From: Candidatus Bathyarchaeota archaeon
Lineage (GTDB): Archaea; Thermoproteota; Bathyarchaeia; Bathyarchaeales; Bathycorpusculaceae
DNA length: 27,402 nt
Direction: 5' to 3'
NCBI GenBank assembly: GCA_963777155.1
Contig: CAVZPM010000012.1
Location: forward strand, 1-27,402
Under the pieces are notes generated by a model that ran no database searches, had not been told where the DNA came from, and saw only the letters and a list, made by a program, of their open reading frames with translations. Of this stretch, positions 8,869 to 27,402 are shown piece after piece. The translations under genes were made by a program, and so were the position numbers. Numbering within the stretch: the first letter of the stretch is position 1; each line of letters begins with the position of its first letter.

Positions 8869-11800
8869 CTATGATGGTTTAGAGCAAGGGAGAAGGTTAA
8901 CTGCAAGCCGCAGCAATTCCTCTTGCGATTCAAAAGACACTTGCTCTAGCTTTCCTATATCCATGCTGTCATTAGCAAAATTGACTACGATCTTTCTGCC
9001 CATGTTTCGATGCCTAAAGAATATGAATGTTTTGTTCACTTGTTTTCTTGCCATATCTATTTCTTTTACGACTTCCGATGAAAGGTTAAAACCTGGAGTC
9101 ATTATAAGAACAAAAAACTTACTTTCCTCTAGCGCTTTATCTCTGAACCTTGTCCATTCTTCTTGCCCTTCAACTATCCGTGGGATGTCTTTGCTATCGA
9201 TAAATGTATGTAATCCAAGTTCTTCTAAACCTGCCTTCAAATGATCGGCGAAATCTTTAGCAGAACTTTTTTTGTAACAAAGGAAAACTTGGAAAGGCTT
9301 CGAACCTGCGGTAATAGTAGAATGAGTTCTGTTTTCTTCTGTGAGTGTATTTATTCTCGGTGAGGGTGACGTTTTTGCTGTTGGTATTTGACTTGGATGA
9401 ACTGTAATGGTAACTGGTTCAATGGTACTTTTCTTTCTTTGACCTAAATCATCGTTGTAGATGATTTCAGGGCTTAAAGTGTATGTATCCGGCTTTGTGG
9501 CTTTAATGGTTAGAGTATAAACTTCATTTTTGAAAGCGGGGATTCCTTTGTTATCCATCTCTGCCGTATTATCTTTGAGATTTAAGATCGGGTTTGTTGA
9601 GATAAGGTTAAAACTTGGAGGTATCAAGCCCTCGATTTTTAATAGAACCGCTGGGTTTTTGCCTGCATTAGCAACGTCGAGCCTAAGGGTGAATTCCTTA
9701 TCAACGTGGACTGATGAAGGCACCATCATGGATGAAATTATGGCAGCATGCATCAATCTCTTTCCTATCATGTTGACGATGGTTTTTGATATTGCTAGCT
9801 GACGCATACCCTCTTCGAATCGGCCTTGCTGTAAGAGGGCGCAGCAGTACCATTGTCGAATTGAACTTTCAACGCATGTTCCTGGCCGCAGTTCATTGTA
9901 ATGTTCTATGCTCTCTTGGTAGAACTTGTTCGCCTCATCCCATTGACATTTGAAAGAGAAGAAGAGGGCTTTACTAAACAAGTACAGGCTTTTTTCAAGA
10001 ACAAATCTTGAGATCAGATTCTCGTTGAATATTTTTTCGAGTTTTTTTCTGTATGCTTCTGATTTTTCCAGTTCTCCAACAAAACAGTATTCTCTTGTCA
10101 AGTTGCCATAAAGTAAAGCTTGAATTTCCTGGGAACCTATTTCTCGAGCTAATTCAACGCCTTTTTCGCTCTGCTCTATGGCAGCTTGGAAGTCTTGTTT
10201 TTCTGTCTCGGTTAGTCTTATTGTGGGTGATAGATCAAATTCCATCTTCTCATAAATCTTTGAGAAGATTCTGTCCATTGTTTGGCTTTCAGTTAAATAA
10301 CTCGACAGCCAACACCGCCAAGCTTCGCTTTCACTTTTTCTTTTTGGGTCTTCTATTTTTTGAATGGTCTTTGACAAGTCGTCAATTATACTTGCAGTTT
10401 GTTTGCAGAAGCCGCACTCCTTGGCGACTACAAATGCAACGACGAGGCTTGAGAGTTGTTTTCCTAAATCTCCTGTTTGCTCGCAGATTGCAAGTGCTCG
10501 CAAAATTGAAGCTATTGCTTCTTCCGGTTGGCCAGTGCTTGAAATCTCTTGCTCTGATCTATACATGTAAGCCATTGATAATTCGTTTGATACATCAATA
10601 ATATCTGGGAGTGATTTCATTTCTTCGAAGATCTGAAGAGAGCTCTGAAGGTCTTCCAAGGCATCTGGTATATTTCTGCACCATGACTCAACCATTCCTT
10701 TGGTGAACTTGAAGCGGGCTACCTCGAGCCGATCAATATCTGCATAAGAAACAGGTTTTCTTACTATCACAAATGCAAGATCACAATTTCCATTTAATAG
10801 GTAAGCATTAGCAGCTTTTCGTGATGTTCGAACTTTGACGAGTTGAGACTTTGTTTGCTCGCATAGTTTTTCAAACACCTTTATGGCTTCAGCTATTTCG
10901 ACATTCAAAAAGGCATCCCCCAAACCCTCGGTGGCTTCTTCCCATTGAGAAATATGTTGGGGGTTGTCCTTTGTATTATCAATCACATATTTGAAGTGTT
11001 TAATAGCTTCCATGTTTGACATTGAAGCTAGAGCATTTTTTCCAGCAGCAAGCGAAAACTGTACCGCTTTTTCTTTCATATCTGATCGAGAATAATGGTA
11101 TGCAATTATACCAATTTCCGGGATCGAGATGTCGCTACTGTTTTTCTCAAGTTCTAGTGCTATTTTACTGTGGTATATCTTTCGTTCTTCATCAGGTATC
11201 TCGTCGTAGACTATTTCTCGTGTTTTTGGATGGTCGAATCGGTAGTATGATCCGTCGCGAACAAATAGTGCATAGATTTCTGAAATAGTCTGAAAAGCAT
11301 CAGCTGTTTCAATATTGTTTTTACCAGAAAGTGAGGATAAGAGAGCTACATCAAACTTGGTAGTAAGAATAGATGCTATGTTCAAAATTTTTCTTTGTTC
11401 AGTTGTTAGATTTTCTGTTCTAAGTAAAATTATTTTTTTAAGGTCTGTTGGCAAATTTGTTTTAGTAGTTATGGTGAACTCTTGGGTTTTTTCGATTGAA
11501 CCGTGTTGCTTTTCACATAGCATTCTTAAATATTCAATTATGAAAAGGGGGTTGCCGTGGCTTTCTTTATGTAGTTTCTGAGCAAAATCTGATTGAAGAC
11601 TTTTTCCAACCATCTGAGTTGCTAAAGAAGAAACTTCACCAAGACTTAGACCCGAAGGCAAAATCTCAACTAAATTTCCGCTGCCTTTCATCTGCTTAAC
11701 ATAGTCGGTTAGAGAGTACTTTTTTTCCTTGTTAGCTTCCAAGTTTCTGTTAGAAGTTGCAATAATCAAGAGGCGCTCGGAAAGAATTGAATTAGTAATA

Positions 11801-12345
11801 TAGTGAAGAAGCTCTAGTGTGGCCGAATCAGCAAATTGTATATCCTCAATGAAAAAGATTAGAGTAGTTTTTGCACATAAGGAGAGAAACGTCTCTTTTA
11901 CTGCTCTGAAAGTTTGATTCTTCCAGGTTTGTGGTGAAATTTCACCAGAACCGGAAGGTTCAATTGGTCCATTCAGCCAGCTGATTAGTGCTGAATTGCT
12001 GATGGGGTTCTCGAGGTTTAGTTTATTATCGGTTTTTTGTGAAGGAGCAACCTCTTTTTTCTTGGTTTGCGACTCAAAATAGGTGTTAAATGCCTCGAGG
12101 AAAAGATAGTAAGGTTTTCCCGAATCCTTCAAGCATTGACCAGTCAATGTTGTGATAGACACTCTTTCGCTAAGCGAGCCCAAAAAATGGTTAACTAATC
12201 TGGTTTTTCCTAATCCATCTTCTCCTGAAATGAGAATAATTCGTCCATGACTTTCAATTGCAAATGCCAAGGATTGCAGCAATTCTTCTAGTTCTCGATT
12301 TCTACCAACGAAAGCGGATTCAAAATAAATTCTGGATTTCACCAT
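8869..12345 (-). CDS. STAND-class (AAA_16-like) ATPase-TPR-Ig-like-TIR domain protein
   Basis: FVGRNRELEEL, Walker A GEDGLGKT, Walker B FFIEDIQFAD, GNPLFI, FDHPKTRE, TPR helices; C-terminal TIR VFLCY...FADHL...TFID...ALEESKFFVLIMTPGF..S.EVVKEI; ATG 12345 preferred over TTG 12435. Confidence 0.9.
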   Translation of the reverse strand: MVKSRIYFESAFVGRNRELEELLQSLAFAIESHGRIILISGEDGLGKTRLVNHFLGSLSERVSITTLTGQCLKDSGKPYYLFLEAFNTYFESQTKKKEVAPSQKTDNKLNLENPISNSALISWLNGPIEPSGSGEISPQTWKNQTFRAVKETFLSLCAKTTLIFFIEDIQFADSATLELLHYITNSILSERLLIIATSNRNLEANKEKKYSLTDYVKQMKGSGNLVEILPSGLSLGEVSSLATQMVGKSLQSDFAQKLHKESHGNPLFIIEYLRMLCEKQHGSIEKTQEFTITTKTNLPTDLKKIILLRTENLTTEQRKILNIASILTTKFDVALLSSLSGKNNIETADAFQTISEIYALFVRDGSYYRFDHPKTREIVYDEIPDEERKIYHSKIALELEKNSSDISIPEIGIIAYHYSRSDMKEKAVQFSLAAGKNALASMSNMEAIKHFKYVIDNTKDNPQHISQWEEATEGLGDAFLNVEIAEAIKVFEKLCEQTKSQLVKVRTSRKAANAYLLNGNCDLAFVIVRKPVSYADIDRLEVARFKFTKGMVESWCRNIPDALEDLQSSLQIFEEMKSLPDIIDVSNELSMAYMYRSEQEISSTGQPEEAIASILRALAICEQTGDLGKQLSSLVVAFVVAKECGFCKQTASIIDDLSKTIQKIEDPKRKSESEAWRCWLSSYLTESQTMDRIFSKIYEKMEFDLSPTIRLTETEKQDFQAAIEQSEKGVELAREIGSQEIQALLYGNLTREYCFVGELEKSEAYRKKLEKIFNENLISRFVLEKSLYLFSKALFFSFKCQWDEANKFYQESIEHYNELRPGTCVESSIRQWYCCALLQQGRFEEGMRQLAISKTIVNMIGKRLMHAAIISSMMVPSSVHVDKEFTLRLDVANAGKNPAVLLKIEGLIPPSFNLISTNPILNLKDNTAEMDNKGIPAFKNEVYTLTIKATKPDTYTLSPEIIYNDDLGQRKKSTIEPVTITVHPSQIPTAKTSPSPRINTLTEENRTHSTITAGSKPFQVFLCYKKSSAKDFADHLKAGLEELGLHTFIDSKDIPRIVEGQEEWTRFRDKALEESKFFVLIMTPGFNLSSEVVKEIDMARKQVNKTFIFFRHRNMGRKIVVNFANDSMDIGKLEQVSFESQEELLRLAVNLLPCSKPS

Positions 12346-12656
12346 TGGCGCTCGCTCTCGATTAAAGGCAATGCGGACATGTACTTTTTTATAGGGCGTG
12401 TAACCACAAAAGCTTTGTGATTTTATATTCTTCAAAAAGCTATGGTGTGCCTTATTTTGATTTTTCTAGGGTGACAATATTATTAGAAAAGCGTGCGTTT
12501 TGGAGAGAAGGAGATTATTGAGCAGTTATCTAGAGGAAAAATCTTTCTGATTGATGTATAGTACACCATTTAATGGATCAATTTTTGTCTCAAGAGTGGC
12601 GATTTGGCAAATCTTTTATATTAATTCCAAACATAGAAGAATCGGGGAGATTTTCA

Positions 12657-20070: not shown

Positions 20071-20137
20071 GCGCAGAAAAAAGGGATTTTGTGGGTGACA
20101 TCTCCACTTGTCCCATGTTCAAATCCCATGGGTTTTT
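20071..20137 (+). repeat. tRNA-like/att-like motif with hairpin
   Basis: GCGCAGAAAAAAGGG...GTGGGTGACATCTCCACTTGT-CCCATG-TTCAAATCC-CATGGG-TTTTT. Confidence 0.7.
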
Positions 20138-21227
20138 ATGACCTAACTGTGCTAACCAGTTCTCTCCAAGGTGACAAACAGGGTTTACCTGAACCGTCTG
20201 AGAATAGAAAGCCATCGCCTCGGGCACCATGGTAGTCAATGTAATGCATCCAGGAAATACCGAATAAACCCATCTCCCTTAGGGAAGCCTCTCTTTGGGA
20301 AATGTCGTTAACAACATCAACCTGAGCTTGGGGACCCCAGAGATAATCATCAACGGAAAGATGCGCCAGCAGGATATGTTGGTTGTATTTGCTCAAAGCC
20401 TTCACATTAGCTGCTATATCGTCTATCATGTAATCCCAAACATGAGATTTGTCTCCGAATCTGTCTACCCAGTTAACATCTCCATAGTTCGTCTTCAAAT
20501 CGTCTCCACTGAGCCATTTCCCTTCTTCCACACCTCTCAAACTCCACATAGCTTGAAAACTCATAAAATCCATACTCTCCATACTAGAGGTCAAAGCTCC
20601 GTTCATACTGATGTCATCATTATAACGTGGTTCCCAACTGCCAATGCAATAGCTTACTAAAACATTGGGTGCAACTTCTTTTATTGCATTCCTAGAGTCA
20701 ATCATCAACTGATTCCAATAGGTATAATCAAGGTTTTCGTAAGCAGATGGGTCGTTAAATTCAGTTTCCAACGAAATCAAGGCTGTATGGCGACCATCAT
20801 TTGGAGCTTTCAGATGATTTGCCAAAAACCTGAGGTCATCAAGCCATTCTTGCCTGTGCAAACCGAGGCTGGCTGGTGAATAATCAACATTCCATGTGCC
20901 TGTAAAATATTGGTATGTAATCAGATGTGGAACAAGGCTCTGATTCCACAGAGGTCCAGGCAAATAATAACTAGACCACCAGCCGTAAAGGTCATCATGA
21001 CTACTTATCCATGATGTTGCTAAATTCATGCTTAACGAATAATCGCTGTTAAGGTCTTGCAAATTACTCCATGTGTCTGCGCCTGTTCCTATCAGAAATT
21101 CATCAAATGTTGCGTTTTGAGGGTCTAAACTTTTCGGAAGTACGAAAATGGCGCTAACACTAATTGCAGCAATGATAATTAGTGCCGCACTCAAAACCAG
21201 TTTCTTGAATTCGTCCACCAGCTTCAA
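20136..21227 (-). CDS. Secreted or membrane-anchored putative glycoside hydrolase (TIM-barrel-like)
   Basis: N-terminal hydrophobic helix; Trp/Tyr/Asp-rich; ISLETEFN, IKEVAPNVLV, MDFMSFQ and DGSGKP segments resemble GH superfamily proteins; family not assignable. Confidence 0.55.
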   Translation of the reverse strand: MKLVDEFKKLVLSAALIIIAAISVSAIFVLPKSLDPQNATFDEFLIGTGADTWSNLQDLNSDYSLSMNLATSWISSHDDLYGWWSSYYLPGPLWNQSLVPHLITYQYFTGTWNVDYSPASLGLHRQEWLDDLRFLANHLKAPNDGRHTALISLETEFNDPSAYENLDYTYWNQLMIDSRNAIKEVAPNVLVSYCIGSWEPRYNDDISMNGALTSSMESMDFMSFQAMWSLRGVEEGKWLSGDDLKTNYGDVNWVDRFGDKSHVWDYMIDDIAANVKALSKYNQHILLAHLSVDDYLWGPQAQVDVVNDISQREASLREMGLFGISWMHYIDYHGARGDGFLFSDGSGKPCLSPWRELVSTVRS

Positions 21228-21616: not shown

Positions 21617-22139
21617 AACACGCGCACGTGCAGTTGCTTTTATTGGTAAAAGGGATTGGAGTTTAAGGGTTGAAGCGTTAGCGGCTAAACTGAAAAATAT
21701 AGAGAAATCTTCTTTGAATGTTCCAGTCGATAAGTAGAGCTTAATCTTTGGCTTGTCCTCGAAGTTTCTCCAGTTAGGCGTTGACAGCGAAACTAAAAAC
21801 AGTTTATCAGAAGTCTATTGTCTAAAGTCTATTGATAAGATGTTCTCTTTGAATCTTTCTTTAGCGAGTTTTGCTTCTTTTACACCATTTCGCATATTAT
21901 ACTAATATATCGCTGTATGTTATAAAGTCTTCTTGTTAGACACTATTCTATTTTGCACGCGAAAGCCTCTTCATTTATGTAAATAGCTTCTTTGGTTTAA
22001 ACTAAAATCAAAACGAACAGCTTGACAAACCTAACTTTCTAAAAAAAGGATGGTGCGGGAGTGGTCTTCAAGATCTCAGTTATTTCCCGTAGAGATTTGT
22101 CTTATTATTTAGGTGAATAAAACAGGTAGAGCAATAAAC

Positions 22140-23420
22140 TCAAGTGGTTAGGTTGTGCCTACGCGATTTAGCCACAAAAACCGCAAGCAACCCTCCAACA
22201 ATAATGATAGGCACAACGATTGTCGCAGTTGGGAACACAGGAACATTTGTGCTACTGGAGATGTAGCCAACGTAAAGTGGGTCATGCACTATCTGCAAAC
22301 CATCCCAAACTGGAAAACAAACCCTATACACCATCGAAGACCCACTATAATCTGTGTTTATGTCTGCCCATGAACCGCCGAAAAGTACATTCAGGTTTAG
22401 TTCGTCCCTGAAAAAGATGAAGACTCTAACTGAAGGGCCATAGAATTGGAATGGCAGACTTGAAATCGAAACCACTTCAGCTTTTGCCTCATAAGTTTGG
22501 ATGTCGGCTTGATGGGTTTCGTTATTTTCGCCTCGGTTTAGGGTATAGTTTCCGCCGAAAACAAACTCATAAGCCTTCACATTGCCTACTGTAACTTGTG
22601 CATTGTCAGCGACGATTGTTGAATTCTCCGTAGTTGAAGGGTTGTACGCTTGACCATTCACTGACGTAGAGAATTGTTGCGAGGCATAAGTTGATGTCGG
22701 GTAGAGTAGAGATAGGCTCAATCCATTAAGCGAGAAGTTTGAAGAGTTAGAGACTTCGAGGCTGGAGACTTCTCCGATGTCAAAGTTCGTCTTTAGGTTT
22801 GAAACGTTCTCATTAACACTGAAATCATAGCTAAACATAATATGGTCAAACATTAGTTTAGCAACTGTGTCTACGCCACCTGCAGGCTTTGGCTGAAGAA
22901 AGTAAGCTTGAACATCCTCATACCTGAAGCCCCACTGATAATGCGGTACATCGCCGACAAACGTCTTTTGAATCAGGGTTGGGCTGGCGCTGATACTCGT
23001 ATTCATGAACATGTAATAGAGTATTTCACTGCTTGCAGAATCGAAGTTGCCTTGAGGGATCCCGTCGCCATTCAAGTCACGGTAAACTTCAAACTTATCC
23101 AAAGCACTTGCAACAAAAACTTCCGAGCCGTCAGCCAACTTAAGATACTGCCCAACTAAGTTAGCAACTGGACCTGGATATGGATTATTAGGATCAGTAT
23201 ACATCGCGTAGTTGATTATTTGTGTGCCTGAAACATTTACCCAATCGTACCAAATCTTCAAACCTGAATGTGGCGAAACAATGGTGCCGTTTCCAAACTC
23301 CTCATTCACAAAAGCAAAGTTGGGCGGACTCTGAGCAGAAACCACATCAGTCTGAAACACAAATGCAAACTGAAAAAAAAGAATAAGAAGCAAAGGCAGA
23401 ATGACAACAGTCTTTCGCAT
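22140..23420 (-). CDS. Hypothetical secreted, C-terminally anchored surface protein
   Basis: Signal peptide MRKTVVILPLLLILFFQFAF; many N-x-S/T sequons; FPVWDGLQIVHDP; C-terminal TM followed by KSRR; alternative start at 23444. Confidence 0.85.
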   Translation of the reverse strand: MRKTVVILPLLLILFFQFAFVFQTDVVSAQSPPNFAFVNEEFGNGTIVSPHSGLKIWYDWVNVSGTQIINYAMYTDPNNPYPGPVANLVGQYLKLADGSEVFVASALDKFEVYRDLNGDGIPQGNFDSASSEILYYMFMNTSISASPTLIQKTFVGDVPHYQWGFRYEDVQAYFLQPKPAGGVDTVAKLMFDHIMFSYDFSVNENVSNLKTNFDIGEVSSLEVSNSSNFSLNGLSLSLLYPTSTYASQQFSTSVNGQAYNPSTTENSTIVADNAQVTVGNVKAYEFVFGGNYTLNRGENNETHQADIQTYEAKAEVVSISSLPFQFYGPSVRVFIFFRDELNLNVLFGGSWADINTDYSGSSMVYRVCFPVWDGLQIVHDPLYVGYISSSTNVPVFPTATIVVPIIIVGGLLAVFVAKSRRHNLTT

Positions 23421-23812
23421 TTTAATCGCCTGACAAATATTCATTCGTATGAGGTATTAAGTTCTTGCTAAAAGAGACCTAGATTTTCTGAATCCATTGT
23501 TGAGAATTAAGAAAGATTTTCGTGGTTTGGAGAGTTTTGTTCCTTTTTTGGTGGGTGGTTTTTTATTTGTTGTTTTTTGTTTTTTTTTAGTTGATAGTGG
23601 TTTGCTTTTGCAAGTGTTTCATAAGATTTGGGTCTTTTCAATCGGATAGACAAGCACATTTGCTTAATTTGACACGTTTGTTAAGTTGAGTTTTGAAAAA
23701 TTGCTAAAGTTGACAATTAGCGTTATTGGACTTTTCAAAAAAATATATATCAAGTCATACGATAAGAGGAGTTAGCAAGAAACGGCAGCGTTATTTGGAG
23801 GAAAAAAGAAAA

Positions 23813-24034
23813 ATGCAAAACGAAGAATTAGCGAATCTAGCAAAGAAAGTAAGAAACCATTTACCTAACGTGGAATCGTTTCCAATAGCTACAATCTACA
23901 CCACAATAAAAGAGCAAGAGAAAACTAAATTGAATCTACCAGACTTTAAACAATTAATCTACCATCTAACAGGCTGGGACATATCCTTCCAAATCATACG
24001 CAGACAACTGGAAATAAACCAGATAGTATGGTGA
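23813..24034 (+). CDS. Hypothetical 73-aa protein, repeat copy 2
   Basis: 71/73 aa identical to the 1299-1520 product; GGAGG RBS. Confidence 0.75.
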   Translation: MQNEELANLAKKVRNHLPNVESFPIATIYTTIKEQEKTKLNLPDFKQLIYHLTGWDISFQIIRRQLEINQIVW

Positions 24035-24066
24035 GCAACGAGCGCACTTCTTTTGGGTGACTTAAA

Positions 24067-24162
24067 ATGGCGGATAAGAAATATTACGGTGGCATTGCAT
24101 TGTTCCTAATGCAGCACAAGGACAAAAGTAAAGAGGGAGAAAAGTATGTGCCGCGTATTTAA
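24067..24162 (+). CDS. Putative microprotein MADKKYYGGIALFLMQHKDKSKEGEKYVPRI (31 aa), repeat copy 2
   Basis: GGTGA RBS; a 1-bp indel changes the C-terminus relative to copy 1. Confidence 0.5.
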   Translation: MADKKYYGGIALFLMQHKDKSKEGEKYVPRI

Positions 24163-24240
24163 GAGAGAAGTTATTGTGTGATAGAACTCTCTCACCAGCC
24201 GATCCATAAGTTCTGAAGCGCGCGCAAAAAAGATGGGTAA

Positions 24241-24291
24241 GCGGGTGATAAATCCACGTGTCAGGGGTTCAAATCTCCATCCCCTGCACCA
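24241..24291 (+). other. Degenerate tRNA 3'-half-like sequence, candidate attachment site
   Basis: AATCCACGTGTC-AGGGG-TTCAAAT-CTCC...CTGCACCA resembles variable loop + T arm + CCA; no matching 5' half upstream. Confidence 0.6.
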
Positions 24292-24794
24292 CTAATCAAA
24301 ACCATAACAGGCCGTTAAACAGAAGATAAAACCGAAAAATCCTGTCAGGAAAGCATTCTTATTTTTATTACTTACAAACTTCGTCAAGGTTCGACAGTTT
24401 TAATTCGACAAGCAGTAGTCATAAAAGAAATGTCGTTGAAACTATGTTGTAGAGGTTGATTTGGTTCCTGCGCAACTTACTGCCTATGATACGTCATGGT
24501 TGAACGTAACCTAGATGAAACTTGAAAAATGGTTTTGTTGATTTAATCCTAAAAGGATGGTGAACGTGAGCATTATTTCATTTGTTCAGCGTAGTTAAGT
24601 TGCAGATCTCAGACTCACCAGGTATGGAACTCAATTACAAACACCTCTCCTATGACAGCACATTTCGTCTATAATTCCTAATTCTTAATAGAATATGTTG
24701 TTTTAAATATTAGAGAAAAAAGAAGAATAAAGAAATGTTCCTTGTTGATTACAAATACCAGAAAGAAAAAATGCAGACAGAAATCAGCCTTCAG

Positions 24795-25000
24795 TTCTTT
24801 TGTTTTGCTCAACTTGCGTGGTTGTGGGTTTTTTGGGTGCCACATCTTTTTGTTTGTGGATTTTGTTGCGTTTTGTTTTTGGGGTTGTTTTTGCTGGTTG
24901 TTTGGTTGTGGGTGATGGGTTTGTTTCACTAGTTTGCATGGATGGTATGTTGGGTTTTTTGGTTGTGGTTGTGGCGCATGTTGGCTTTGTTTGGTTGTGG
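24795..25000. repeat. G/T-skewed low-complexity tract
   Basis: Runs such as TTGTTTTTGGGGTTGTTTTTGCTGGTTGTTTGGTTGTGG with very few A or C on the + strand. Confidence 0.7.
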
Positions 25001-25003
25001 AAG

Positions 25004-26458
25004 CTATCCTCTTGGGACAACTGCAAGAAACTGTTCAGGCTCCATAGTTGCCGTAGCATAAACAGCTAAAGCTATACTCCAAAAGACATCATCGTGTGTT
25101 CCGTAGGGGTGCGAAAAGCCGATGTTGCCATCTTTGCGCAAGTCATAGCGTTCTACGTTAAGCTCTGTGCAAATCTCTCCCCGGTAAGGGCGCTCCCAAC
25201 TTAGCAAGGGATAAAAAAACTGTTTGTTCATCATGCGCTGCTTGAGCAAGCCAGCCATCTCGCTTTTTCTTGGGACACTAAAACAAACGCCTTCGGCGTT
25301 GTCTATGCCGGCGTTTTCCATGTCAGCGATGATTGATGGGCCTTCGCGGGTGAAGTCTACCCGTATTTTTTCAAATCCGCCCCAACGATCCTGCAGTGCC
25401 TTTAGATAGCCTAAAACGGTTGCATAGAGGGTTGGCTGCTGAAAAATCTTCAGATGCCTCAAATACAGTTTATCGTTTTGTCGCTCAACCACTGAGAGAA
25501 CGCAGTAGTCTCTGGTTTGTGCCAGGTCAAGTCCAGCGAAAAATTCGCCTTTAACATTTGAGTCTGGGTTGAATTCTTGCAGGTCTTCGCCGCAGCTTTT
25601 GTTTGTGCCCACGCATGAAGCGATTAGGCTTTGTGTTAACCAGACGTTGTCATCTTCTACCCATTCTGCCTCCATTTCGCGTCGCCACCTGGAGGGGTCG
25701 TCGCCCATTTGTGTCTTGATTTTCTCTATGATGCCTGGTTTTAATGGACCATTGGGATACAGGGCTTTTTCAACTGTGACATGGCTGGTTTTAAAGTCGC
25801 TAAAATCCTTATGGTTAAAAATTTTAAAGAATACGCTGTCACTATTCCAAGGAGTACTGCTGCAAACGAATTTTCCATCCGTAGTCCCAAGAGTATAAAG
25901 AATAGCGTCATAGAGTTCTTGGTCGTTTGGAACAAAATTAAATTCGTCACAGTAAACCACGTTTAATGTTGGTCCACGTATTGTTTCTGGGTTATTTGGG
26001 AATGCTTCTATGCTGCTTCCGTTAGCAAAGTGAATTTGAGTTCGCTGAGGCTTAAATGCAATTCCTGGCGGCAGTTTGTGTGTGAAGAAGGCTATGCGTG
26101 AGAGGATTCTTTTTGTTTGCCGCCATGAAGGACCAACTATTCCAATTGCACTTTGGGGATGAGTTGTTGCATACCACAGGAGCAGAGCGGCTATTATGAA
26201 GGTTTTTCCGCTTTGTCTACACCAACGAGCCGCAGTGAATTGGTTGTTTTGGAACATCTGAATGAATTCTGCTTGATAATTAAAAGGTTTAAAGCCCACT
26301 AATTGCTCAAAAAATTTTAGGGGCTCCAAGCTTAGATTCTGGGTTTTTCTAATTTCCGCTTGCCTGATTTCCCTGTTAGTTTGCTGGACGCTACGCCACT
26401 GGGGAAGAATCTGGTTGGGACGAAGAGTTCTGGCTTCTTTCCTTAAGTAACTGCGCAT
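25004..26458 (-). CDS. terL: Terminase large subunit (ATPase + RNase H-like nuclease)
   Basis: PFNYQ adenine-binding motif, Walker A CRQSGKT, IRG, Walker B VYCDEF, SSTP coupling motif, GLDLA and HDDVFWS nuclease motifs; exact start uncertain. Confidence 0.9.
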   Translation of the reverse strand: MRSYLRKEARTLRPNQILPQWRSVQQTNREIRQAEIRKTQNLSLEPLKFFEQLVGFKPFNYQAEFIQMFQNNQFTAARWCRQSGKTFIIAALLLWYATTHPQSAIGIVGPSWRQTKRILSRIAFFTHKLPPGIAFKPQRTQIHFANGSSIEAFPNNPETIRGPTLNVVYCDEFNFVPNDQELYDAILYTLGTTDGKFVCSSTPWNSDSVFFKIFNHKDFSDFKTSHVTVEKALYPNGPLKPGIIEKIKTQMGDDPSRWRREMEAEWVEDDNVWLTQSLIASCVGTNKSCGEDLQEFNPDSNVKGEFFAGLDLAQTRDYCVLSVVERQNDKLYLRHLKIFQQPTLYATVLGYLKALQDRWGGFEKIRVDFTREGPSIIADMENAGIDNAEGVCFSVPRKSEMAGLLKQRMMNKQFFYPLLSWERPYRGEICTELNVERYDLRKDGNIGFSHPYGTHDDVFWSIALAVYATATMEPEQFLAVVPRG

Positions 26459-26846
26459 TTAATTCCTCCATCTCTCTAAGTTTAGCTTCGATTTGGCGGT
26501 AATCGATGTAGTCGGCAAGGAGTTCTTTGTAGGTTTTAGCGATTGTTGCGACTGCTTGCAAGCGTTGAACTTCAACTTTGTCTAGTCCTGGTTTTATGGC
26601 TAATTTTAGTGCGCCTGCGAGAATTTTTGCGGTTTCTTCTACGCTTGGTAGCTCTCTTGGGATGGGAATGGAAGTGTTAACGTATCCTTTTGCTTTGAGT
26701 TCTATGCCTAGGCGTTTGCATTTTAGGAAAATGGCGCCTGGAGTTTTCTGTAATTTTGCGGCTATCTCATCTATCCTTGCGTTTGCTTCGACAAGTGATT
26801 TGAGTTCGGCTTCTTCTTGGGCGGACCATTGTTTTCCTTTTGTCAT
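26391..26846 (-). CDS. Putative terminase small subunit / Myb-HTH DNA-binding protein
   Basis: WSAQEEAELKSL...IDEIAAKLQKTPGAIFLKCKRLG HTH followed by a helical/coiled-coil region; overlaps the 5' end of terL. Confidence 0.65.
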   Translation of the reverse strand: MTKGKQWSAQEEAELKSLVEANARIDEIAAKLQKTPGAIFLKCKRLGIELKAKGYVNTSIPIPRELPSVEETAKILAGALKLAIKPGLDKVEVQRLQAVATIAKTYKELLADYIDYRQIEAKLREMEELNAQLLKERSQNSSSQPDSSPVA

Positions 26847-26868
26847 GTATTGATTGCATGTAGCAACG

Positions 26869-26923
26869 CTTATATAACATTTAATGTTAAATAAATGGCA
26901 TAACTTAACAATGTCTGTTAATG
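26869..26923. promoter_or_regulatory. Divergent promoter with TATA box and two TAACA-N5-TGTTA palindromes
   Basis: Minus-strand TTATATAA about 25 bp before ATG 26846; palindromes at 26875-26889 and 26906-26920. Confidence 0.55.
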
Positions 26924-26933
26924 GTGTAAGAGC

Positions 26934-27377
26934 ATGTTGGGTAATTCAATGAGAAAGTATGTTATGAGCGAAAACAAGAACGGCTACAGCAAAGCCGTCC
27001 AAAGCGTCTACAATAGCCGCATCAAAACCTACGCAAAACAAGCCCTCCAAGACCTCGCCCTACTAGCAGAGAAGCTGCCTGAAGACCAACAAGCAGAAAT
27101 ATTCAACGAAAAAAACACTTGGGAACTACTAAGAGCCATCTTAAAACAGAGCTCAGAAGAAATGACCCGACTACACCAAGACAGAGAACTAACGAAAAAG
27201 AAAAGAGAACGCCTTCTACCATTCTGCTACAATCTAATAACACTGCTAAACGACTCTAATTTGGCTCATCTTCTTGCGCCCGTTGGAGATAGATACATGA
27301 TAAAAGAAGGTGGACATTTAGCGCACCTAAAAGCCATCTACTACCGCAGCTTAAACGGAAGAGACGACCAAGAATAG
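26934..27377 (+). CDS. Hypothetical helical protein, divergent from the terminase module
   Basis: Up to 147-aa ORF with natural composition and several possible ATG starts; no recognisable motif. Confidence 0.75.
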   Translation: MLGNSMRKYVMSENKNGYSKAVQSVYNSRIKTYAKQALQDLALLAEKLPEDQQAEIFNEKNTWELLRAILKQSSEEMTRLHQDRELTKKKRERLLPFCYNLITLLNDSNLAHLLAPVGDRYMIKEGGHLAHLKAIYYRSLNGRDDQE

Positions 27378-27402
27378 AGATGCCTCCAATGAAACAGCGC
27401 AG

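Follow-up and report, generated by a model that had tools for sequence, protein, structure and literature searches.

A terminase gene pair standing apart from virion genes in Bathyarchaeia

Introduction

Can an archaeal lineage keep the two terminase genes of a tailed virus without genes for a capsid? The question is raised by contig C12 of the Bathyarchaeia metagenome-assembled genome (MAG) G000 (2.29 Mb, 39 contigs, 90.6% complete). This contig, 27,402 bp in length, was analysed in its entirety and is called the window hereafter. At its right end lies an intact gene for a large terminase (TerL), preceded by a gene for a small-terminase-like protein (terS). TerL is treated as a hallmark of tailed viruses. 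Among the 21 open reading frames (ORFs) of the window scanned against Pfam and PHROG, no portal, capsid or tail family was matched. A whole lineage of lone pairs under selection in Bathyarchaeia would represent a new route by which cells or minimal parasites keep viral packaging machinery. It might also offer these uncultured archaea a means of transferring genes and of interfering with viruses. A practical warning would also follow, namely that TerL matches overcall proviruses in these genomes.

An initial annotation had proposed that the pair is an orphan, on the grounds that portal and head genes are missing downstream of terL. As an argument this is not valid. Related proviruses carry their head and tail genes upstream of terS, so that the absence of genes after terL is uninformative. 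Moreover, contig C12 stops 556 bp upstream of terS. Because this is the side on which the virus family keeps its head and tail genes, the window alone cannot prove orphan status. The proposal itself is borne out by the relatives of the locus and by searches of the whole of G000, as described below.

The two proteins of the pair

Both genes announced by the initial annotation were recovered as intact ORFs of the minus strand, with the expected TerL families and motifs. TerL matches Pfam PF03237 Terminase_6N (E 3.7e-19; 69.7 bits for a cut-off of 22) and phrog_2 "terminase large subunit" (1.2e-40, residues 18-468). Alignment with T4 gp17 identifies CRQSGKT, VVYCDE and SSTP, which we take to be the Walker A motif, the Walker B motif with the catalytic Glu, and the coupling motif, respectively. 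TerL thus possesses the N-terminal ASCE ATPase of large terminases, and in PDB profile searches this ATPase part alone aligns. The putative C-terminal RNase H-like nuclease was assigned via family membership; Terminase_6C reaches just 20.4 bits, below its cut-off of 22.6, in the paralogue of contig C11, and D311, D368, E432, H455, D456 and D457 are near-invariant in 34 family members. Some close homologues (P0037, P0096, P0100) contain the intein domains PF14890 and PF07591, and at loci L079 and L080 the TerL match stretches over 2027 nt.

The terS ORF overlaps the start of TerL by 68 nt. The same arrangement, terS just upstream and overlapping, is found in 27 of the 29 TerL loci compared across G000 and nine relatives, with an overlap of 35-77 nt as deduced from locus coordinates. 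The gene therefore has the position, the overlap and the co-inheritance with TerL of a small terminase gene. The label "TerS-like" rests on position, TerL overlap and architecture rather than on family membership. No TerS family was matched in Pfam or PHROG, the sole match being phrog_323 "transcriptional regulator" (2.8e-8), and the PDB gave no sequence match. The predicted model (pLDDT 74.6) consists of a three-helix helix-turn-helix (HTH) domain followed by a helix of about 50 residues. Its HTH superimposes on the DNA-binding domain of GcrA (Z 7.8, rmsd 1.6, 48 residues). Nothing significant was returned by Foldseek, and VIA-align gave HTH and generic long-helix matches only.

Origin in head-tail proviruses

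When the genes within about 9 kb of the 29 TerL loci were clustered, a conserved structural block, termed type A, emerged in five loci and partially in two more. The type A set comprises L032, L034, L050, L051 and L055, together with the IMG/VR contigs L061-L066 and L069. As drawn from extended flanks and family scans, the gene order starts with an HTH regulator, a cement/scaffold protein, the major head protein, a weak portal-like protein and an alpha/alpha-toroid-like protein. It ends with the tail tube, Neck1, tail proteins, two small genes, terS, TerL and an ABC-ATPase/GNAT gene. The major head protein is recognized by phrog_544 (8.6e-8) with no Pfam match, and the portal by a weak match only. 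An integrase is encoded further downstream of TerL in L034 and L055, and is followed in L034 by tRNA-Leu. A portal label considered for the 462-aa type A protein c10 was dropped, since the atlas led to virus-labelled clusters and to a weak likeness to alpha/alpha-toroid hydrolases. The structure model of the 339-aa protein c11 (pLDDT 48) was discarded. Genes of the c10/c11 type also occur at about 1.69 Mb and at 2.51 Mb of G014:C1 with no family TerL listed nearby, which is the converse of lone pairs.

Ten IMG/VR contigs carry relatives of TerL (48-68% identity), none of them in the clade of the window. The tail-terS-TerL block is visible in seven of the ten, two further ones have a Neck1-like gene with a run of same-strand genes upstream, and one (48% TerL identity) shows the textbook gene order.

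Type A and the window have homologous terS and TerL genes, with the same overlap and the same HTH protein; type A TerL is 63-69% identical to that of the window in loci of the genus and 52% identical in L055, which belongs to another family. However, type A carries major head, cement, tail tube, Neck1 and tail genes upstream and the ABC-ATPase/GNAT gene downstream, as well as the integrase of L034 and L055 (beside tRNA-Leu in L034), whereas the lineage of the window has none of these. Judging from homology and gene order, the pair descends from head-tail proviruses of the genus, whose morphogenesis module closes with terS and TerL.

No virion genes found around the pair or in the host genome

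In the window, the neighbour of terS is not one of the co-oriented small genes of type A but the divergent gene c19. Metagenome contig L109, 96.4% identical to window positions 25761-27402, extends 2.9 kb beyond, where a 128-aa ORF, MazE/PIN and PIN genes are found past c19. Sequences of this extension recur in contig C36 of G000, which probably explains the assembly break at the end of C12. Locus L076, whose TerL is 87% identical to that of the window, offers 9.6 kb of upstream sequence in which no viral family was found; genes for PIN/MazE, cupin, GYD, metallo-beta-lactamase and radical-SAM proteins are located there. A full provirus to the right, which had been put forward as the alternative to orphan status, was thus sought in the two relatives and was not encountered. 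Short contigs from four DNA runs covering 22000-27402 contain no joint that bypasses the pair. The TerL of L076 is itself truncated at 421 aa and is directly followed by an IS91-family (Y2) transposase gene (L076:11362-12390).

In G000 as a whole, three full copies of TerL are found, besides one cut by a contig end and one fragment. The other two full copies are 63-64% identical to that of the window. The C11 copy is located between GT87, Lhr helicase, TBP and ribosomal genes on one side and PRPP synthase and THUMP methyltransferase genes on the other. A tblastn search of G000 with all conserved type A genes found no structural gene; it returned terS, TerL, a 28-aa remnant of gene a11 beside the C11 copy, and cellular ABC-type ATPases (a19, and weakly a14). 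PF05065, PF04860, PF18906 and PF00589 had no match in G000. Capsid, portal, tail-tube and integrase genes were accordingly not detected in this 90.6% complete genome, with the caveat that Pfam models are poorly sensitive to archaeal capsid genes. Altogether, capsid, portal and tail genes lying side by side were found neither in the window, nor in L109, nor in L076, nor in G000. The tyrosine recombinase family PF00589 is present in 14 of 14 control genomes, whereas none was seen in G000 with an E-value limit of 0.001; a copy may be hidden in the 9% of the genome that is missing.

The same picture is obtained from the relatives. Among 113 proteins flanking 18 solitary loci, Pfam identified no integrase and no phage structural family. 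These flanks encode ribosomal, respiratory, primase/GINS, transporter, mevalonate-pathway and toxin-antitoxin proteins, and two transposase genes. The lineage of the window, as far as gene content tells, is a gene pair alone, with its own predicted TATA promoter, amid cellular, toxin-antitoxin and defence-like genes. The base composition of the pair (GC 0.452, GC3 0.449) equals the genome means over 784 long ORFs (0.449 and 0.445). TBP, ribosomal L10P/L1 and MtrH are encoded on other contigs of G000, and the closest TerL homologues bear Bathyarchaeota or Bathyarchaeia names. The host is therefore a Bathyarchaeia archaeon, and a cyanobacterial origin, suggested by a weak DUF2555 match, was rejected on the same grounds.

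Distribution and phylogeny of solitary pairs

Some TerL match was obtained in 30 of 40 relatives. The family proper (at least 57% identity) is represented in half of the genus genomes searched (12 of 24); a single genome may have as many as 8 matches, and some matches contain stop codons. By comparison, the type A structural genes c10 and c11 occur in just 6 of the 24. Besides G000, seven genus genomes (completeness 58-95%) have a family TerL with no c10/c11 match.

In a 30-row TerL tree, the clade of the window has 14 rows, all of them solitary, with support 100. After addition of 70 metagenome loci it grows to 38 rows (support 99). The context is known for 22 of these, of which 21 are solitary and one has only an ABC-ATPase (a14) fragment downstream. 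The sister group, L103 and L105, is of type A. Other solitary copies, including those of C11 and C27 and their relatives, nest inside type A clades, which implies that the solitary state arose at least three times. Among 32 metagenome loci with at least 700 bp of upstream sequence, the type A small genes are present in 8 and the textbook order in 1; the remaining 23 show neither feature.

Most solitary copies of the first sample (20 of 22) are full length. Isolated remnants of TerL also exist, C-terminal ones (about 11 loci) outnumbering N-terminal ones (about 3). In L042, L045 and L053, some remnants follow an intact copy at a distance of 0.5-5 kb and share its orientation, as though elements had been stacked or replaced at one site.

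Purifying selection and partial synteny

One sub-lineage sits beside mevalonate-pathway genes (UbiD-like, AcnX, kinases) in four species (L031, L042, L044, L047); a fifth locus, L045, has only the GHMP kinase in common with it. Ratios of nonsynonymous to synonymous divergence (dN/dS) were determined by the Nei-Gojobori method. In the syntenic sub-lineage, dN/dS is 0.05-0.11 for TerL, 0.12-0.20 for terS and 0.05-0.08 for the neighbouring UbiD, and dN and dS themselves are similar for TerL and UbiD, with dS approaching saturation. Over 11 unsaturated pairs of the clade (dS 0.03-0.9), the values are 0.06-0.23 for TerL and 0.10-0.45 for terS. Two type A pairs give 0.056 and 0.079 for TerL, and the duplicates L038/L039 of genome G015 (dS 0.096) give 0.106. 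Hence, solitary TerL is under purifying selection of the same strength as its proviral counterpart and a neighbouring housekeeping gene. The relaxed selection on terL that the initial annotation had asked about is not seen (0.05-0.23).

Promoter region and divergent gene c19

The 87 bp separating terS from c19 contain a TATA-like box, GTTATATAAG, about 25 nt ahead of terS. Of 13 clade members compared, most have such a box some 25-35 nt ahead of the gene. A perfect inverted repeat, TTAACA-N5-TGTTAA, occupies 26905-26921 (1 match for 0.02 expected), and a second one of the TTAACA...TGTTAA type overlaps the TATA box. Conservation of the region extends to L038, L039 and L109; in L072 and L076 it is partial. 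The arrangement of the repeats resembles an operator, and the HTH protein may also recognize them. Besides the window, the trio c19-terS-TerL is found in L038, L039, L072, L076 and L109, with a dN/dS of 0.20-0.21 for c19 relative to the window copy. No family matches c19 in Pfam, PHROG or PADLOC, and the atlas gave no usable lead.

Ends of the conserved unit

DNA homology among loci stops within a few bases of the TerL stop codon and near the start of terS. For the window, homology with 25 other loci ends at 25003-25071. Two sister solitary copies at different loci, C11 and L048, lose homology at the TerL stop codon and share a 116-bp patch upstream; no terminal repeats were seen in this comparison. 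At the mevalonate locus, G000 has an AbrB/PIN pair in place of the terminase pair, and the empty-site comparison yielded no readable clean insertion ends.

The surroundings ascribed to the pair, with low-complexity DNA and an att-like site after TerL and a divergent gene before terS, are all present. Locus L120 (96% identical) tracks the window from 25573 down to 24794 and then passes into unrelated, C36-like sequence. On this alignment, the low-complexity tract is a rearrangement breakpoint, and the adjacency of the pair to the neighbouring repeat-bracketed island is strain-specific. The att-like site is a tRNA-like minihelix scored weakly by cmscan (8.6 bits, E 0.8), and neither ARAGORN nor Rfam at its gathering thresholds reports a tRNA in the window. 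A tRNA T-arm-like motif on the opposite strand is found at most 1.2 kb after TerL in 6 of the 29 loci, for about 0.1 expected assuming equal base frequencies. The same minihelix geometry is seen downstream of TerL in L009, L035, L042, L044 and L054. In L042, L044 and L054 the motif lies 42-60 nt past the TerL stop codon, and just a 3' tRNA fragment is present there. Since TerL lies near the tRNA-side end of the proviruses, such fragments match provirus geometry. The surplus of C-terminal TerL remnants fits this location as well.

What may the solitary pair do?

The reading that we favour, tentatively and at somewhat less than even chances, is that the two genes form a functional small/large terminase module, standing alone, that would use the capsids of related viruses, thereby diverting packaging and/or moving island DNA. 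In such a model, the HTH protein would bind a site at or near the locus, and TerL would cut at the bound site and pump the DNA. Procapsids would be supplied by a related virus infecting the cell or induced in it. Foreign capsids are invoked because a terminase can act only on procapsids. The diverted packaging would harm the virus and/or move neighbouring island DNA, in the manner of a satellite or of lateral transduction, and either outcome might bring a benefit. A bolder version, possible but doubtful, would make solitary TerS-TerL a distinct type of archaeal virus-derived element: a capsid-less two-gene unit that persists and spreads and pirates the procapsids of related viruses, at once a minimal satellite or anti-virus device and a launcher of islands.

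Several observations weigh against the favoured reading. No helper virus was found in G000 itself, so that the capsid would have to come from outside; in addition, proviral contigs may be absent from the MAG. The TerL family is accessory, being missing from 12 of the 24 genus genomes, and broken copies and fragments exist. No known TerS appears among the fold matches of terS. In the tree, 16 of the 38 clade rows are without known context, and the rows are partly duplicates (55 different sequences among 60), so that the 38 are not independent cases. As for selection, dS approaches saturation in many pairs, and some of the divergence may have accumulated while the genes were still proviral. Finally, in the pair L045/L047, dS is 0.31 for terS and 1.16 for TerL, a mismatch that points to recombination and blurs vertical descent.

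Among the rival explanations, domestication for a task other than packaging is unlikely. The HTH protein might guide an antiviral or DNA-processing ATPase-nuclease, perhaps together with TIR, STAND, PLD or toxin-antitoxin genes, or the pair might serve as bait. Purifying selection in a genome with no capsid genes would be accounted for, and PLD/DrmC-like and PIN/MazE genes do lie nearby. Furthermore, the TIR domain of the STAND protein of the window is 73% identical (100 of 137) to a 241-aa membrane-anchored TIR protein encoded directly downstream of TerL in G015 (L038:1728-2453 and L039:8450-9175), and in L036 a broken STAND gene from the cluster of the window protein precedes terS. However, this link is limited to one sub-lineage (the window, L036 and the mutual duplicates L038/L039), the TIR domain has at least three copies in G000, and most solitary loci have plain housekeeping neighbours. 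All packaging motifs are retained, and neither TerL nor terS matches any PADLOC model. The suggestion that the terminase might trigger an Avs-type sensor in the same island finds no support, since the STAND protein has only TIR-domain matches in PADLOC (1e-5) and no match to Avs models at E up to 0.001, although TIR does recur beside the closest relatives of the pair. A self-moving two-gene unit, be it a transposon or homing-type element derived from a terminase or a mini-element mobilized by the integrase of a helper, is improbable. It would explain why members of one clade occupy differing chromosomal sites with several copies per genome, why homology ends at the TerL stop codon, and why tRNA 3' fragments follow TerL so closely in L042, L044 and L054. 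The RNase H-like nuclease, assigned by family, and the resemblance of the terS HTH to that of Tc3 transposase (Z 6.8) go in the same direction. Yet neither terminal repeats nor target duplications were observed, the copies of a given genome share 63-77% identity and so are not near-identical, one lineage keeps the same locus in four species (in the fifth, a nearby gene only), and the empty-site comparison showed no clean boundary.

That the pair is an inert relic of decayed proviruses, still intact by chance, also appears improbable. Relics do exist in the family, as fragments and copies with stop codons, as the C-terminal remnants that exceed N-terminal ones, and as the a11 remnant beside the C11 copy and the a14 fragment of L089; a comparable thaumarchaeal element, NitKor-E1, was read as a likely relic by its describers (Krupovic et al., 2019, PMC6563490). 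Against decay stand the 20 full-length copies out of 22, the conservation of the promoter and of the terS-TerL overlap, and dN/dS values of 0.05-0.23 that include recent duplicates and syntenic orthologues. Least probable is that the window holds the end of a complete provirus, with head and tail genes past the contig end or lost in binning. The position of type A structural genes upstream of terS, the contig end 556 bp away and the 90.6% completeness of the MAG would leave room for it. But c19 adjoins terS in divergent orientation where the co-oriented a10/a11 would be expected, the upstream regions of L109 and L076 hold toxin-antitoxin and cellular genes, L038 and L039 have no structural genes in about 8 kb, and searches of the whole of G000 returned none of the type A structural genes. 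The three natures that the initial annotation had envisaged for the pair, a satellite-like hijacker, a module resembling a gene transfer agent (GTA) and a domesticated machine, remain live. The GTA-like module is unlikely for G000, where no structural gene was found.

Relation to known packaging systems

Phage satellites, such as phage-inducible chromosomal islands (PICIs) with their own TerS, capsid-forming PICIs and PICI-like elements (PLE), are chromosomal, encode packaging specificity, need virion parts of a helper and interfere with that helper. They generally possess an integrase, replication genes, regulators and defined att sites, none of which was found for the pair: PF00589 is absent from G000 and from the 113 flanking proteins, and only tRNA-like fragments are present. 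We know of no satellite consisting of TerS and TerL only. In lateral transduction, a process attributed to the work of Chen and colleagues in 2018, in situ packaging from a chromosomal pac site reportedly carries adjacent host DNA into capsids. That process involves complete bacterial prophages, whereas here only the terminase would be resident and the foreign capsids are putative.

GTAs and the provirus-derived morphogenesis loci of Thaumarchaeota are virus-derived packaging genes kept in a cellular genome without replication genes (PMC6563490, PMC5797428). GTAs keep capsid, portal and tail genes, and no capsid/tail set was found in G000 at its 90.6% completeness.

The closest precedent is NitKor-E1 of Ca. 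Nitrosopumilus koreensis AR1. It is an integrated element whose sole Caudovirales-like genes are TerS and, directly downstream, TerL; a VapBC toxin-antitoxin system and a nuclease are nearby, and its function is called enigmatic, the element being a probable relic (PMC6563490). NitKor-E1 is a single case with a tyrosine integrase in the element, whereas a whole lineage with several copies per genome and no integrase found is described here. Purifying selection and partial synteny were also measured in the present case. According to the same source, mobile elements other than viruses had not been found to encode the terminase complex (Krupovic et al., 2019, PMC6563490). No description of lone terminase pairs beyond NitKor-E1 was found in the full-text literature, subscription journals and supplements being outside this coverage. 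In the accessible main texts on viruses and proviruses of Bathyarchaeia, supplements aside, lone pairs are not mentioned.

Features of the window and the neighbouring island

Table 1. Positions of the terminase pair and of surrounding features in the window.
Feature	Positions	Strand	Description
Large terminase TerL	25004..26458	-	484 aa, intact ORF
Small-terminase-like gene terS	26391..26846	-	151 aa; N-terminal three-helix HTH, helix, ~50-residue helix, Ser/Pro/Gln tail
Divergent promoter region	26847..26933		TATA-like GTTATATAAG and two inverted repeats
Divergent gene c19	26934..27377	+	147 aa, conserved in relatives
Low-complexity tract	24780..25003		C/A-rich on the TerL strand (G/T-rich opposite), directly after the TerL stop; sequence, TRF
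tRNA-like acceptor and T-arm minihelix ending in CCA (att-like remnant)	24241..24291	+	Convergent with TerL; cmscan
Direct repeat (context, outside the pair)	23618..24226	+	95% identical to 1104-1711; blastn
STAND NTPase-TPR-TIR protein (context)	8869..12435	-	1188 aa; AAA_16, TPR_12, TIR_2

The 609-bp direct repeat brackets a 21.9-kb block that encodes the STAND-TIR protein, KaiC-like ATPases and CHB_HEX surface proteins. Each of its copies contains a 102-aa ORF without Pfam match, and in the window the tRNA-like minihelix comes after the right-hand copy. The repeat is also found in G000 at C36:135274-135941 and C38:47805-48199, and C36 has what appears to be an island-free version, with further rearrangements. 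In DNA runs X1 and X3, contigs join 22182 to 23436 via 14 other letters, a population variant lacking a 434-aa ORF. The 363-aa ORF at 20136-21227 is 97% identical to a copy at C13:50126-51214 of G000, and a short terS-like HTH fragment (C13:51565-51705; 47% identity over 47 aa) follows that copy.

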